Below, one piece after another: positions 28,254 to 63,986 of a stretch of DNA of 64,000 nucleotides. The notes beneath the pieces are model-generated. The model was not told where the DNA came from, ran no database searches, and worked only from the letters and a program-made list of their open reading frames with translations. The stretch comes from a virus (taxonomy: Duplodnaviria; Heunggongvirae; Uroviricota; Caudoviricetes). Within the stretch, counting starts at the first letter, position 1; each line of letters opens with the position of its first letter. The stretch lies in the IMG/VR virus record IMGVR_UViG_2744054962_000001. One strand, 5' to 3'. Made by a program: the position numbers and the translations under genes.

Positions 28254-28328
28254 GATGGTGTAGCTCAGCGGTAGAGCAGTTGGCTGTTAACCAACTGGTC
28301 GGTGGTTCGAATCCACCCACCATCGCCA
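28254..28328 (+). tRNA. tRNA-Asn (anticodon GTT)
   Basis: cloverleaf read by hand: acceptor GATGGTG/CACCATC, D-arm GCTC-AGCGGTA-GAGC, anticodon loop CTGTTAA, T-arm GGTGG-TTCGAAT-CCACC, encoded CCA. Confidence 0.8.
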
Positions 28329-28330
28329 AT

Positions 28331-28406
28331 GCCGGTTTAGCTCAGTTGGTAGAGCACCTGCCTTGTAAGCAGGATGTCAGCGGTTCGAATCCGTTAACCG
28401 GCACCA
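28331..28406 (+). tRNA. tRNA-Thr (anticodon TGT)
   Basis: acceptor GCCGGTT/AACCGGC, anticodon stem CCTGC/GCAGG with loop CTTGTAA, T-loop TTCGAAT, encoded CCA. Confidence 0.8.
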
Positions 28407-28414
28407 ACACAATT

Positions 28415-28501
28415 GGAGAGTAGAGAGCATGGTGCTCAAGCGGTCTTGAAAGCCGTCCCATTGCGCAAGCGATGATGGTTCGATTCCATTACTCTCCGCC
28501 A
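28415..28501 (+). tRNA. tRNA-Ser (anticodon TGA), type II with long variable arm
   Basis: acceptor GGAGAGT/ACTCTCC, anticodon loop CTTGAAA, variable-arm hairpin CATTGC-gcaa-GCGATG, T-loop TTCGATT, encoded CCA. Confidence 0.7.
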
Positions 28502-39525: not shown

Positions 39526-39798
39526 AAAGAATTATGGCGCTTGTTGAGGAAGTCACTCCTCTTACGCACTTTGTTTTGCCATGCCGGCAGTTAGCTTCTG
39601 CCTTTGACTATTCATGCGGCAACCCCGCATTTCGCCACAATGGGCAATTCACTTTTATGGAATAAACTGGCCGTTGTGTCGATTTAATTAGCATGGCCTT
39701 ACCATGCTAATTTATTCAACTTGTACAATCCTACAAATCTATCCACTCAGGCTTACACCGTCTTCGTTATTGTAGAAATGAGGATCATCAGCGTTGAA

Positions 39799-40014
39799 TC
39801 AGCTTAGAGCAACGACATTTGCTGCTGCTGGGCCTTTAGCACCATTCTCGATAGAGAATTCGACCTGCTGGCCTTCTTCCAAAGTGCGGAAATTATTACT
39901 CTGAATTGCCGAAAAATGTACAAAAACATCTTTACTGCCATCAGCAGGAGAAATAAAGCCAAAGCCTTTATCAGAGTTAAACCATTTTACTAAACCAGTC
40001 ATTTTATTAGACAT
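39799..40014 (-). CDS. cold-shock protein (CspA family)
   Basis: [23 protein letters not shown]...[12 protein letters not shown]1/RNP2-type cold-shock domain; start at internal Met of the track ORF. Confidence 0.8.
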
Positions 40015-40343
40015 AGATATTACCTTCTTAATTTTGTGAGCCACATAGTGCGGCGAGAATTTGATCTGTATAGATTGGGACTTACTTAGGCACTTAAGGA
40101 GGAGGCTCACGAAGAAGGGAAATCAGAAGATAACACTGAACTGAGACTGCTTTACTAAAACTGCTTACATAAGGTCTGTCTTGCAAACCAACGATGCTAT
40201 TAACGCATACCCCTTCTTTTCATGCAACCTTTATTTTTCAAAGATAACTAATTTTTGTCACCATTGGTTTAGTAAACGTTAACGAACCAGACGATGCCAG
40301 ACACCTTTACAGAGAACAGATGCCCGCCAATTGGCGGGCATCA

Positions 40344-49163: not shown

Positions 49164-49375
49164 TGGCATTAACACTGGCAGGTCTGGAAATCGAGAAAAC
49201 AAGCGGCTACTGGCGTGCTAAGGGTTTCAAGCAGCCTGGCATTCTTGAGCGTCTGGAACGTGAAGATGGGTATATCGTCCACCAGCGGCGTGAATGGCGT
49301 ATGTACAATCCAGAAACAGGAAAACTGACTACAAAAGCCGGAACACTTTGGGGCCTGTTGAAGAAAATACACTAA
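49163..49375 (+). CDS. hypothetical protein
   Basis: 70 aa coupled ORF. Confidence 0.25.
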   Translation: MALTLAGLEIEKTSGYWRAKGFKQPGILERLEREDGYIVHQRREWRMYNPETGKLTTKAGTLWGLLKKIH

Positions 49376-49379
49376 TAGC

Positions 49380-49860
49380 ACCAACCACTGCGGTGAGTAG
49401 CCAGCTCACCGCATTCGTATCAGCTCATTATCCACCGTGGTCTGCAGTCCTCTCTTCCTACATATCTGCTAACCACTGTAGCGAGTAGACAGCCTTTCAT
49501 TCGCATCAAACAACCACTATGGTGAGTATTGGAGTGAGATGTCCAGCTGGTATCCACTATGGTGAGTAAGCCTTTGCTGTTTTCAGTGGATATCCACTCG
49601 CCACAGTGGATACGCTCAAAGATGAGGGCGACAACAACCACTATAGACAGTGAATTTTCCAAGATACCCAGTGACCACTAACCTCGCAGCCCTTGTTTCA
49701 TCAGTGTTAGTGATCACTAACATTTAATTCAGTATTTGCATTCTACTGCCTACAGTGGTTATCAACAGATAACGATACTCACTATAGTGGATAGCGAATT
49801 ACAGATATAAGTAAGGCTCACTACAGTGGATAGTGAGCCTTACTACTAACTACAGTGGTT
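49380..49860. repeat. iteron array downstream of repA (candidate copy-control/incompatibility locus)
   Basis: at least 10 copies in both orientations of a CCACTATAG / CTATAGTGG(AT) core, e.g. CCACTGCGGTGAG, CCACTATGGTGAG, CACTATAGTGGATAG, CTACAGTGGATAG. Confidence 0.6.
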
Positions 49861-49863
49861 GGG

Positions 49864-50919
49864 CTATTTGCGAGTCTTTGCCTTGCGCAACTCTTCGAGA
49901 AGCGCCAGTTCTTCTTTACTCAACATGACCATTTTGCCTTCTTTTTCGTCAGGCACAACGTCGATAATGTCATCTTGATTCTCATCTGGGAGGCTATATT
50001 CCGTCTCATCATTATCGATTTTTGTTGATATTTGTGCCTGGCGTAACTTTGGCCGCCTATAGTGGATGATGAAGTAGACCGAGTTTCCGCGCTTAACTTC
50101 CGTGTAATCGAGATATCCTATCTCTCGCAGCTGTTCCATAGCCTTTCTTACCGTCGCATTCTGAGTAATAGTGCGACTTGTCAGATTAAGTCTGGCGCGT
50201 AAACGAGCTAGTGATATTGGTGCCGGATCAGGCGGCAAACTTTCAATAAAAGTATAAAGCGCCTGAGCGGATTCTTTTCTTGAGAGTTCGTTTATAGCCC
50301 GGAGTTGCAGAAGAACCTTTTTGTCGAACTGGTAGAGTTCGAAAATCTTGGGATCTGCTTTCAGTTCGACCGTATCGTGCTTGACACTATATTTTGCCGT
50401 TTGCACAAGATGCGTTACGTAAAACTCATCAGAGCCTTTGCTACGGAACGAGATGGTATTTGTGGCAATACGGCTTAGCGAACTGTCCAGGCGTTTGCGT
50501 AACTTCGCTGATGACCTGGCGGTCGGAATGCCACACAGCCTTACAAACTCAACGAACGGCAACGTGACAGTATCGCCAACGACCTTGTGTTTGGCAAACG
50601 CGTGGATTATTCCCACCCACGTTTTAAAGTCGTTATCCATATCAAGCCGAAGGCCAGAGATCCTTATGTCTTCGTACCCTTCGGCTTTTGCCAGAGACAG
50701 CTGTTTGAGTTCAGCAGAGGCATCCATAGAGACCATTTGCCCCTTTCTTCCTCTGGATGTCGATTTCAGCGTCGGAACGAAGAGGCCCAGACGCATCAAA
50801 GCAACAGGCTGAACAGTGTTATTAGTGTTAGGAACCAACGTAACAACTTCGCCTGTCTTTTTATCTGTTTCTGAAAATGCTTCAACGATCGCTATGTTTT
50901 TATTGCCGTTTTCGCTCAT
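49864..50919 (-). CDS. repA: plasmid-type replication initiator RepA
   Basis: 351 aa; gene flanked on both sides by iteron arrays and upstream DnaA box, the classic iteron-replicon layout; protein identity not searched. Confidence 0.55.
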
Positions 50920-50939
50920 TCCAAATGTCTCTTGTTATT

Positions 50940-51600
50940 CGACGGCTTTGGTGGCCTTTGCTGATTACAGTGGATAGTAGCACTCATCACAGCGGTTATC
51001 CTACCGTCTATAGTGGTTTTTCTCCTCTCTATAGTGGTTGCTTTGCTCCCTATAGTGGATTATTCGCTCTCTATAGTGGATATCGATCATGTCTGAAGGC
51101 AGATGGCGCAACGGTTTGAGGTGGGCGGGGATCTTATTGGGTCTTTATGGGTCTCTTTGGTTCTCTTTGTGATCTGAATTACTGGATCGGGCCTGTGGAT
51201 AAAATCAGAGGATTTCAAGAACAGGTAACTCTACTCTTCTGTGGATATTTAAGGACATAAGAATCATGACTAAGAGTAGAGTTTAAAATATATCTATGTA
51301 TATCAGTATGTTAATGAAGAATTAAGTCATTAAGTTATCCATAAAAGACAATGTGCTCTACTCTCTACAGTGGATATATACAGCTCTCCAGAGTGGTTGT
51401 TTTACTCTTCATAGCGGTTATTCAGCTCTCTACAGAGGTTTCTTTGCTCTCCATAGTGGATGGCAACACCCTTTCAGACCAGTAACCGCAACGGCTAGAG
51501 GCGATCGGGGATCTCTTTGGATCTTCTATTTGATCTTACTTGGGATCTCTTATTTGGATCTATCCAGTGGATAACTGGGATAAGTAAAACAGGCAAATGC
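50940..51600. other. candidate plasmid origin: iterons at about 21-22 bp spacing, DnaA box, AT-rich segment, GATC cluster
   Basis: repeats CTCTATAGTGGWT at roughly 51006, 51027, 51049, 51069 and 51362-51455; TGTGGATAA (DnaA box) near 51193; GATC-rich stretch 51500-51560; AT-rich 51240-51350. Confidence 0.55.
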
Positions 51601-51661
51601 AGATTAAGGTATGCCTAATGAGTTATCGTAGCATCGGCCAATAACTACTGAAAAAACGATT

Positions 51662-52306
51662 ATGGATCTAAAACGCACGCGCTGGGTTCGTCGTCTTGAG
51701 GACGGCTCCTACACTATCGAATCAAATTCCAACCTGAATAAGCAGAAGTTGCTTTGTGACATCTGCGGTATAGCGGCGAAGTGCCCGATCTACGAAACCA
51801 GAATTAAACTTGATAAGGCTGGTGTGAATTTTCATTTAAACAGTTGCATCAGGTACGTTCCATTGCTCGCATTTCGTAAACCGATCATCGGATTGGATGC
51901 ACCCTACTTCAACACACTCCGTTCAGGTGTGACGTGGCAAGATCGTTTATCACCAGACAAGCTGATTTGCCTTGTATCCGCAGACACAGGGAAAATCATC
52001 CGTTTTGGGAAAGTAGACAAGGTTTACTCAGGCCCAGTAGACGAAATGTTGCGGAAACACAGCCGGTTTAATCATCTCTGTATGGGTGGTGAGAAAATCG
52101 AGAAGGTAGAAGAAGTGATCCGCAAATCCTACGGACACTTCCTGACCAAAGATAGCCTGCTCACCGCAATCTACATCAGACATGTAAAACGTGAGTTCGA
52201 CCTCGAATACCACAGTGAAGAAGAGCTTAACCTTGTTGACCCACGTCCAAAAGCTGGCGTCATAAGCATAAACGCAGCGCGTAAAAAGCCCACTGAGACG
52301 TTTTAA
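51662..52306 (+). CDS. hypothetical protein
   Basis: 214 aa, several Cys, no recognised motif. Confidence 0.3.
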   Translation: MDLKRTRWVRRLEDGSYTIESNSNLNKQKLLCDICGIAAKCPIYETRIKLDKAGVNFHLNSCIRYVPLLAFRKPIIGLDAPYFNTLRSGVTWQDRLSPDKLICLVSADTGKIIRFGKVDKVYSGPVDEMLRKHSRFNHLCMGGEKIEKVEEVIRKSYGHFLTKDSLLTAIYIRHVKREFDLEYHSEEELNLVDPRPKAGVISINAARKKPTETF

Positions 52307-52853: not shown

Positions 52854-53357
52854 TTAATCACAAGTCGTTTTGCCCGTGCCGTCTGGGTACACGATTGATT
52901 CGCACGACTTGCCATTCAAGAAGCTGTAGCTGCGAATAGTACCGTCCGGATCGCGTTCTGTGTAAGACTCCAGCTTCTTCGGATCAGCGTTCTTACGGCG
53001 CACTTCTTTCAGCTCATATTGGGCCTTGTACATCTCCTTGTAGGCTTCCTCTATGCGTTTCATTTTGATCTCCTTTGCCTCTTTGCTGCCCAGATAAGCG
53101 GCCATTTCAAGATCACAGTTGAACCTGATTTTTGGGAATGAAGGCGCGTATCTACCCATGACTTTGGTTAAATCATTGTCGTTAGAGACATAATAGGCAT
53201 GGCTTCCACACAATTTGTCGGCTCTGTCTTGGGCAATTGCTACGCTTGAAGTGGAGTAAATATCAACGTACCCGCCAGCTGACTTTTCATCTTGAGGTGG
53301 TTTTGGTACGCATCCGATCAGAGCAATGGCCATCGTCCCTATAATTACGCGTTTCAC
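52854..53357 (-). CDS. hypothetical lipoprotein
   Basis: signal peptide with lipobox LIGC; 167 aa. Confidence 0.4.
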   Translation of the reverse strand: MKRVIIGTMAIALIGCVPKPPQDEKSAGGYVDIYSTSSVAIAQDRADKLCGSHAYYVSNDNDLTKVMGRYAPSFPKIRFNCDLEMAAYLGSKEAKEIKMKRIEEAYKEMYKAQYELKEVRRKNADPKKLESYTERDPDGTIRSYSFLNGKSCESIVYPDGTGKTTCD

Positions 53358-62882: not shown

Positions 62883-63986
62883 GTGTCACTCCTTTTGAAT
62901 CGAGAGCATACGAACGGTCAGGTAACAAACGCATCGTATGCAAAAGTTATTGAGACGGTGCTTAAAAGCGGCGTGCAGGCTGATGATCGCACAGGCACTG
63001 GTACTTTAAGCACCTGCTACGTTCCCTCTTACTACATGCTTACTGGTGGGACTGTGCCGCTTATTTCTGGAAAGGCGGTAAATCTTAAGCCACTACTTGT
63101 CGAACTTGAGTGGTATCTGAAAGGCACGGGCAACATCCAATTTCTCAAGGATAACGGCGTTAAGATTTGGGATGCATGGGCCGATGAGAATGGCGATTTG
63201 GGGCCGGTTTACGGTAAGCAGTGGCGTCGATGGGAAGATACCCGCATCGTGAGCCATAGTGAATATCTGAGCAAGATCGCTACTTTCCGTGAACGCGGGT
63301 ACAAAGTCGAGGGATACCTGGGTATCAGTGAAGATCGCGTAGTGCTGTCCCGTGAAATCGATCAGCTACAGCGTATTGTCGATACACTGCGCACGAACCC
63401 TACCGATCGTCGCATCATGCTTAACGCATGGAACGTAGGCGAGCTTGAGGATATGAAACTGCCACCTTGCCACTTTGTCTTCTCTTTGTGGAGTCGTGAG
63501 CTGGATTTTGAAACCCGTTTAACGATGGCAACTGACATTGGTCTTCAACACAGTCGCCTCGGTTACGAGTCTATCTACACCAAGATGCTATACGATCTGG
63601 ATATGGACGGCAGTGTTACTGAAGCTGAACTGGATGAACTTGGAATCCCCAAACGCATCCTCAACTCCTGCCTCGTACAGCGTAGCGTAGACACTTTTGT
63701 TGGTATGCCATTCAATATTGCTGGCTATGGCATTCTCACTCATTTTCTCGCGAAGATTACGGGTCACATGGCCGGTGCATTTGTGCATTTTGGCTTTGAC
63801 GTGCATTTGTACAACAACCACATGGAAGGTGTGTGTGAGCTAATGAAACGACAGGCTCCAGAGCATTCAGATCCGGTCGTTATTTTCCCTCATGAATGGT
63901 CAGAGTTGGATGATTTCAAATGGGACGAGGTTTTAATTCTTGGCTATGACCCTCTACCGTGGATCAAGGTTCCAGTGGCGGTGTGA
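62883..63986 (+). CDS. thyA: thymidylate synthase (ThyA family) with two insertions
   Basis: DRTGTGT, GDLGPVYGKQWR, RRIMLNAWNVGELEDMKLPPCH (catalytic Cys), PFNIAGY, HLYNNH conserved; extra segments after WRRWED and after the catalytic Cys relative to E. coli ThyA; GTG start. Confidence 0.8.
   Translation: MSLLLNREHTNGQVTNASYAKVIETVLKSGVQADDRTGTGTLSTCYVPSYYMLTGGTVPLISGKAVNLKPLLVELEWYLKGTGNIQFLKDNGVKIWDAWADENGDLGPVYGKQWRRWEDTRIVSHSEYLSKIATFRERGYKVEGYLGISEDRVVLSREIDQLQRIVDTLRTNPTDRRIMLNAWNVGELEDMKLPPCHFVFSLWSRELDFETRLTMATDIGLQHSRLGYESIYTKMLYDLDMDGSVTEAELDELGIPKRILNSCLVQRSVDTFVGMPFNIAGYGILTHFLAKITGHMAGAFVHFGFDVHLYNNHMEGVCELMKRQAPEHSDPVVIFPHEWSELDDFKWDEVLILGYDPLPWIKVPVAV

Follow-up and report, generated by a model that had tools for sequence, protein, structure and literature searches.

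What kind of replicon surrounds the repA gene of this virus, and which of the two origin-like modules upstream of the gene would serve as its origin? We asked this for the 64,000-nucleotide stretch of the Caudoviricetes record IMGVR_UViG_2744054962_000001 (the window), in which repA lies among repeat arrays. As judged from its sequence, the locus at 49383-51583 is very probably the plasmid-prophage maintenance replicon of an SSU5-like phage-plasmid, an iteron-controlled theta replicon of the P1/RepFIB type, and homology and context together supported this identity very well. Upstream of repA, the locus has two copies of the origin module, and we lean, with much less confidence, towards the one distal to the gene as the unwinding origin.

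The locus is an IncFIB-type replicon of SSU5-like phage-plasmids

The repA gene (49864-50919, minus strand, ATG start) encodes a 351-residue replication initiator of the Rep3 family with WH1 and WH2 domains. Both parts of the family were recognized by Pfam (PF01051, Rep3_N, 42.2 bits against a cutoff of 22.4; PF21205, Rep3_C, 22.8 bits against a cutoff of 21.1), and residues 40-293 were 47.8% identical to P1 RepA (tblastn, E 8e-72), indicating that the protein is a homologue of the P1 initiator. It was also ~44% identical to proteins named 'RepFIB replication protein A' in records of P1-like phages. Sequence searches of NCBIfam and PDB returned zero matches.

The 2.4-kb stretch at 49300-51700 was 99.8% identical to circular E. 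coli plasmids of ~110 kb (including CP088541), in which the same gene is labelled repA; MOB-suite types these plasmids as IncFIB and non-mobilizable, with no further replicon listed. The stretch was 99.1% identical to the phage-plasmid Cyrano (pLF82) and 83% identical to Salmonella phage SSU5, whose RepA was 91% identical. The 742-bp region 5' of repA was ~80% identical in Yersinia pestis pMT1, Salmonella Typhi pHCM2 and plasmids of Enterobacter and Citrobacter. Among 5,426 complete E. coli genomes, 91 carried the replicon locus, and it was plasmid-borne in every case. Near-identity and IncFIB typing thus placed the locus among the IncFIB-type replicons of the SSU5/pHCM2/pMT1/pLF82 phage-plasmids, and the source of the window is, by its sequence, an SSU5/pHCM2-type phage-plasmid of E. 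coli.

This replicon is already known: repA is annotated in hundreds of records, the locus is a typing target ('IncFIB(pLF82-PhagePlasmid)' is a type name in routine use), and it is part of elements that have been studied. Lindler and colleagues reportedly delimited a 2,450-bp replication region of pMT1 in 1998, with a RepA similar to those of RepFIB, RepHI1B, P1 and P7. Published surveys note the IncFIB typing of SSU5-supergroup phage-plasmids (PMC7969092; bioRxiv 10.1101/2025.09.12.675607).

Three iteron arrays surround repA

A 17-bp weight matrix was built solely from the 11 iteron copies upstream of repA (consensus AWCCACTRTAGAGAGYA in repA orientation) and used with a threshold of 15 bits. 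It found 22 iterons in the window, all within 49383-51461, compared with 0.27 in simulated 64-kb windows, indicating that the repeats are real and confined to the locus, as had been proposed from the sequence alone. Although built from upstream copies only, the matrix recovered 11 independent copies of at least 15 bits downstream of repA (49383-49860). The 11-mer CTMTAGTGGWT occurred seven times exactly and 17 times with at most one mismatch, all in 49471-51461; matches elsewhere with two mismatches were background. The best match outside the locus was a 17-mer (ATCCACGGTAGAGGGTC, 63948-63964, minus strand, 13-14 bits) 12 kb from the replicon, the only one of its kind and probably there by chance.

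The sequence-only reading had described two iteron arrays, one on each side of repA; three were present, one downstream and two upstream. The proximal upstream array (50959-51081, minus strand) contains six copies starting at 51081, 51060, 51039, 51018, 50997 and 50975 (spacing 21, 21, 21, 21 and 22 bp), and it stops 39 bp ahead of the repA ATG, leaving a 39-bp leader. The distal array (51359-51461, minus strand) contains five copies starting at 51461, 51440, 51419, 51398 and 51375 (spacing 21, 21, 21 and 23 bp). The upstream spacing of about 21-22 bp reported earlier was thus reproduced, as 21-22 bp in the proximal and 21-23 bp in the distal array, and where a P1-type replicon should have some five direct iterons, spaced by 21 bp, right before repA, six proximal and a further five distal copies were found.

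The downstream array (49383-49860) is incA-like, with 11-12 copies of 15-22 bits in mixed orientation and at a wider spacing of 29-44 bp. Plus-strand 17-mers, inverted relative to the origin, lie at 49383, 49471, 49512, 49552 and 49636, with a weak one at 49430; those in origin orientation (minus strand) lie at 49575, 49595, 49744, 49776, 49815 and 49844. These 5-6 inverted and six direct copies bear out the earlier description of an array in both orientations. Read in the direction of repA, four direct copies come first, followed by a mixed, mostly inverted block. Six lineages were compared throughout, namely this window, SSU5, pMT1, pHCM2, Enterobacter and a second E. coli lineage. The other five all kept the downstream array, which varied from 12 to 15 copies through insertions and deletions of whole iterons. 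We presume that this array is the copy-control and incompatibility locus.

The ~30-44 bp spacing downstream superficially resembles that of some centromere arrays, and the repeats could then be a partition centromere, or operators of another regulator, and not replication iterons. We consider this highly improbable. The motif occurs on both sides of a Rep3-family initiator, which is the arrangement of P1; inspection of the neighbouring genes, which belong to DNA metabolism, revealed no par gene adjoining the replicon; and relatives with a different Rep have different repeats at the same positions, indicating that the repeats change together with Rep.

Directly 3' of the repA stop codon, a stem-loop (49810-49844, minus strand) with a 15-bp stem includes one iteron and a partial inverted copy. 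Its predicted fold has an energy of -26.9 kcal/mol (z = -5.0), and the stem and T-rich tail were kept in the other five lineages; this structure may serve as the repA terminator. The downstream array also contains a perfect 16-bp palindrome with a central GATC (GTTAGTGATCACTAAC, 49706-49721). It occupies the gap that separates the direct from the inverted half and is flanked by GTTAGTGGT repeats that resemble degenerate iterons. The palindrome is specific to this lineage, relatives having GTTAGTGGTTACAAAC, and it was dropped as a regulator site because it was not conserved.

Tandem duplication of the origin module in front of repA

In the direction of repA (from high to low coordinates), the locus is ordered as distal module, 152-bp spacer, proximal module, leader, repA, hairpin and downstream array. 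The proximal and distal modules aligned colinearly with 71% identity over 233 nt and a period of ~380 bp, indicating a tandem duplication. Each upstream iteron array is preceded by its own DnaA box, phased heptamers and GC-rich spacer. A DnaA box and a GATC-rich segment had been noticed upstream of repA before, and both are there; however, they belong to two modules, the perfect box to the proximal and the dense GATC sites to the distal one. The duplication itself had been missed.

The oriR-like core of the distal module (51503-51583, minus strand) starts with two tandem DnaA boxes, TTATCCCAG at 51575-51583 and TTATCCACT at 51566-51574, followed by six GATC-containing heptamers in steps of 7-13 bp (51560-51503). 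Their GATC sites, at 51557, 51544, 51532, 51520, 51510 and 51503, are the GATC-rich segment of the sequence-only reading. With six sites within 55 bp (51503-51560), this cluster is the densest of the window, the runner-up having three per 75 bp. A GC-rich spacer between the heptamers and the five iterons carries CGCAACGG (plus-strand reading), a motif repeated in the proximal module. The distal core is presumed to be the unwinding region of an origin controlled by Dam and SeqA.

The corresponding proximal segment (51125-51202, minus strand) starts with a DnaA box TTATCCACA at 51194-51202, followed by six phased heptamers. This is the position of the perfect DnaA box (TGTGGATAA) that had been reported, one of only four perfect boxes in the 64 kb. 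GATC is retained in three of the six heptamers (51130, 51171 and 51185), and the others read AGAACC, AGACCC and AGACCC. Thus, DnaA boxes and phased GATC heptamers were found outside the origin iterons, with the proximal module being GATC-poor. The proximal iteron array, which contains a conserved -10-like TAGGAT at 50998-51003, is presumed to be the repA operator/promoter region and a partner in handcuffing, that is, the pairing of RepA-bound iterons.

Between the modules, the spacer (51205-51356) carries DnaA-box-like sites at 51240-51248 (minus strand) and 51335-51343 (plus strand). An AT-rich stretch had been listed among the origin features, and it does exist, with 25% GC at 51250-51349; however, it lies between the modules and is AT-rich in this lineage only, the spacer having 30% GC here versus 40-44% in the five related lineages. 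We therefore rejected it as a conserved unwinding element; the spacer also evolves neutrally. The best match of a promoter scan (51287-51314) also falls inside this neutral, non-conserved spacer, and a match over iterons 1-2 was not kept in relatives. A 43-residue open reading frame (ORF) over the proximal heptamers (51087-51218, minus strand) was rejected as coding, as relatives carry a 1-nt indel just past its start.

Comparison with P1 and other replicons

P1, for which the annotated record AF234172 served as reference, is likewise a phage-plasmid with a plasmid-prophage replicon and a homologous initiator. The distal module matches the P1 order of tandem DnaA boxes, GATC heptamers at ~10-12 bp, GC-rich spacer and five iterons at 21 bp, and the distal core TTTTACTTATCCCAGTTATCCACTGGATAGATCCAA is near-colinear with P1 oriR (TTTTTCACTTATCCACATTATCCACTGGATAGATCCAA) across the DnaA site and Dam sites annotated there. 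The proximal array occupies the position of P1 incC, which consists of five iterons at 21 bp and contains PrepA. The nine iterons of P1 incA are spaced 30-41 bp apart, with three of them direct and six inverted, and the downstream array here is similarly mixed, with a spacing of 3-4 helical turns. RepA homology, the colinear distal core and the incC/incA-like spacing thus upheld the proposed P1/F-type layout, in which repA has an origin to one side and a copy-control array to the other.

The two systems differ in several respects. The P1 origin module is single and is doubled here; P1 RepA lacks ~39 N-terminal and ~58 C-terminal residues of the present protein; and P1 has a par operon after the control array, whereas none was found here. 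In addition, the P1 iteron GATGTGTGCTGGAGGGAAA is unrelated to AWCCACTRTAGAGAGYA, which places the locus outside IncY, the P1 incompatibility group. A P1-like mode of working with a different specificity is therefore expected.

The pMT1, pHCM2, SSU5 and pLF82/Cyrano elements (types IncFIB(pHCM2) and IncFIB(pLF82-PhagePlasmid)) carry the same replicon, with RepA 91-99.7% and the 742-bp upstream region 80-99% identical. They share both modules, the 6+5 upstream iterons and the downstream array, which has 13-15 iterons in this group versus 12 here.

RepFIB of P307 and F belongs to another clade with other iterons; we compared it through the ~44%-identical RepFIB proteins of P1-like phages and its published description. 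The RepFIB replicons of P307, F and pO157 have upstream origin iterons BCDD' with a DnaA site and downstream control iterons E-K (PMC11983097). The FIB downstream block causes incompatibility by handcuffing and is sufficient alone for plasmid displacement (PMC11983097). FIB rep starts at CTG (PMC11983097), whereas repA here starts at ATG.

The pKpn/pSLy3-type replicons of the SSU5 supergroup (Klebsiella and E. coli) occupy the same genomic slot and encode a Rep that is 49-52% identical. They have a single origin module adjoining rep and another iteron (GTATGCTGTCAGCGGT). Their DnaA/GATC core resembles that of P1 and matches the distal core of the window at 76-79% identity; with the pKpn type, this core is the only part in common, at 78%. 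The 405-residue 'RepB family' coding sequence of a Klebsiella pKpn-type replicon (1252-2469) seems over-extended at its 5' end, running through five iterons; the likely start is an ATG at 2349, beside two DnaA-box-like sites.

Both copies of the origin module are conserved

All six lineages have both modules with 6+5 upstream iterons. As a roughly neutral benchmark, we used the third codon positions of repA and the inter-module spacer, which were 66% and 63% identical to the five other lineages, respectively. By the same comparison, identity was 78% for the distal core and 86% for the distal iterons, and it reached 93% for the proximal core (the highest of any non-coding segment), 89% for the proximal iterons and 92% for the leader. 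The modules (78-93%) are thus far above the benchmark, indicating that both copies are constrained and, on this measure, under purifying selection. The six distal GATC sites were invariant in all six lineages, and so were the GATC-less proximal heptamers AGAACC, AGACCC and AGACCC.

No variant with a single module was seen among the complete E. coli genomes: 90 of the 91 records cover at least 80% of the region, and in the remaining one the region is split across the start of the circular record. Plasmid pM-64-197 (NZ_MT773672.1) is a natural insertion mutant of the replicon. A 3.0-kb ISEcp1-blaCTX-M-64 unit has entered between the modules at the site equivalent to 51213-51217, where it is bounded by a 5-bp duplication of its target (TTTCA) and lies 11 bp from the proximal DnaA box. 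As a result, the modules are ~3 kb apart, and pM-64-197 is still a complete circular plasmid typed IncFIB only.

To follow the layout further, we scanned for loci by RepA alignment with one genome per species; 80 loci were returned and 77 analysed. In 48 of the 77, the sole cluster of at least four GATC sites starts 438-850 bp upstream of rep, which is the distal position (-641 here). These include loci of Kluyvera, Buttiauxella, Yersinia, Rahnella, Erwinia, Pantoea, Franconibacter and Xenorhabdus. In another 25 loci, and in P1, the GATC cluster starts 223-254 bp upstream of rep. None of the 77 had two clusters of at least four sites. On this evidence, around 48 relatives share the layout of the window.

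Plasmids of Pantoea, Erwinia, Rahnella and Xenorhabdus (RepA 62-77% identical) have the double-module layout, mostly with the same iteron type and with the intact GATC cluster in the distal copy, and they are large non-phage plasmids. An example is a 206-kb Pantoea agglomerans plasmid, which shares the iteron type and whose downstream array exceeds 1 kb and is nearly all in one orientation. When distal and proximal copies of this plasmid and of the window were compared, all pairwise identities were ~0.7, so that a single ancient duplication could not be separated from repeated events or gene conversion.

The distal copy is the favoured unwinding origin

By homology with P1 and RepFIB, the 17-19 bp iterons in front of repA would be occupied by RepA monomers. 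These, acting with host DnaA on the flanking boxes, would open the adjacent region of phased GATC heptamers and recruit the host replisome, and on the iterons beside its own gene RepA would repress repA transcription. The 11-12 downstream iterons, once bound by RepA, may pair with the origin iterons by handcuffing, which would limit copy number and specify incompatibility, while Dam methylation and sequestration of the GATC cluster by SeqA would block immediate re-initiation.

On balance, we favour a division of labour in which the distal copy (51359-51583) would be the unwinding origin, and the proximal copy (50959-51202) would act mainly as repA operator/promoter and as an extra pairing partner. 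The distal copy is favoured because it alone keeps the complete cluster of Dam sites in every relative examined, and because it resembles P1 oriR and the single-module relatives. Several observations weigh against this assignment. No other non-coding stretch is as conserved as the proximal DnaA-box/heptamer segment, which also holds the sole perfect DnaA box of the origin region and has invariant GATC-less heptamers; the proximal core therefore looks functional and not decayed. A consensus scan found no convincing conserved sigma-70 promoter in the proximal array. In the P. agglomerans plasmid, the proximal copy retains four of five GATC sites.

The same perfect box and conservation would suit a proximal module (50959-51202) that is itself the firing origin, the distal one being an accessory element that might, for example, enhance replication, serve in sequestration by SeqA or supply additional iterons for control or incompatibility. 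The position of the proximal module, which equals that of oriR/incC in P1 and in single-module relatives, agrees with this, and the ISEcp1 insertion shows that contiguity of the distal module with repA is dispensable. However, three of the six proximal heptamers lack GATC in all SSU5-group lineages, and GATC heptamers are essential in the P1 origin. Across the 48 relatives the intact GATC cluster is always distal, and a block of accessory iterons would have no need to retain its DnaA boxes along with six invariant GATC sites. We therefore regard a proximal origin as rather unlikely.

The two modules might also both be origins, or form one composite origin, for example with Dam/SeqA-sensitive and Dam-insensitive starts used according to condition or host. 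The DnaA box, phased heptamers and 5-6 iterons that both copies keep under purifying selection point in this direction, as do the Pantoea copies, both of which retain most GATC sites, and the lack of single-module plasmids among the 91 complete E. coli records. On the other hand, two adjacent active origins would compete for one RepA, and Cyrano, a close relative, is kept at a modest ~5.5 copies (PMC9928086). This alternative appears less probable still than a proximal origin.

A broader and more tentative reading concerns the whole RepA subclade. The tandem duplication of a P1-type origin may be an old, selectively maintained hallmark of this subclade, in which the functions of the P1 iteron array have been split between the copies. 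Such a subclade would take in the SSU5/pHCM2/pMT1 phage-plasmids and large plasmids of Pantoea, Erwinia, Rahnella, Kluyvera and Xenorhabdus. The distal copy could then be a Dam/SeqA-gated unwinding origin, and the GATC-depleted proximal copy either the repA operator or a second, methylation-independent origin. We put this forward as a possibility that is more doubtful than the division of labour itself.

RepA extensions and the surroundings of the replicon

RepA extends beyond P1 RepA at both ends, by ~39 residues at the N-terminus (residues 1-39, 50803-50919) and by ~58 at the C-terminus (residues 294-351, 49864-50040). The acidic, coiled C-terminal tail is common to the Rep proteins of Pantoea, pKpn and pSLy3, and it gave a weak, sub-threshold Pfam match to T4_y05I_C. 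An iteron-like 17-mer (ATCCACTATAGGCGGCC, 13-15 bits) lies within the repA ORF at 50051-50067 (minus strand, codons ~285-290), where P1 RepA homology stops; it is kept in the five enterobacterial lineages and is not conserved in Pantoea. The P1 repA gene likewise overlaps, at its end, with the first iteron of incA. The 17-mer hints that the ~58-residue C-terminal extension arose from read-through into a former control region.

The replicon occupies a slot between a cra-like gene and a 214-residue ORF. The neighbours of repA, on the opposite strand, are phage DNA-metabolism genes: a RecA-like protein, exonuclease, SbcCD, ribonucleotide reductase, DnaE, primase and ligase. Between the 214-residue ORF and an SbcD-like gene, a 167-residue ORF (52854-53357, minus strand) is present in the window, in CP088541 and in SSU5. 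It is unannotated in phage Cyrano, where the flanking genes are ~290 bp closer, suggesting a small indel polymorphism beside the replicon. Elsewhere in the window, we noted a cluster of three tRNA genes at 28254-28501 (Asn-GTT, Thr-TGT and Ser-TGA) and a full-length match to the Rfam cspA thermoregulator at 39774-40192 (minus strand, 187 bits), suggesting a cold-shock-protein gene with a thermosensor in its 5' untranslated region on the phage-plasmid.

Significance

For plasmid biology, the replicon as such is nothing new, and some novelty is left only in the tandem origin modules. The iterons and origin features were not annotated in any record examined, and no description of the origin duplication was found in the literature searched, which did not cover the older primary papers on pMT1 (Lindler 1998) and RepFIB (Spiers 1993).

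SSU5-like phage-plasmids are common in E. coli, Shigella, Salmonella Typhi and Y. pestis, and they can carry genes for extended-spectrum beta-lactamases and other resistance genes, with ISEcp1-blaCTX-M-64 lying within the replicon region itself in pM-64-197. A parts list of the replicon is useful for incompatibility typing, for reading resistance phenotypes driven by copy number, and for the design of curing cassettes, given that FIB downstream control iterons alone displace a plasmid (PMC11983097). If dissected, the doubled origin would offer a natural system in which the origin, operator and handcuffing roles of iterons could be separated.

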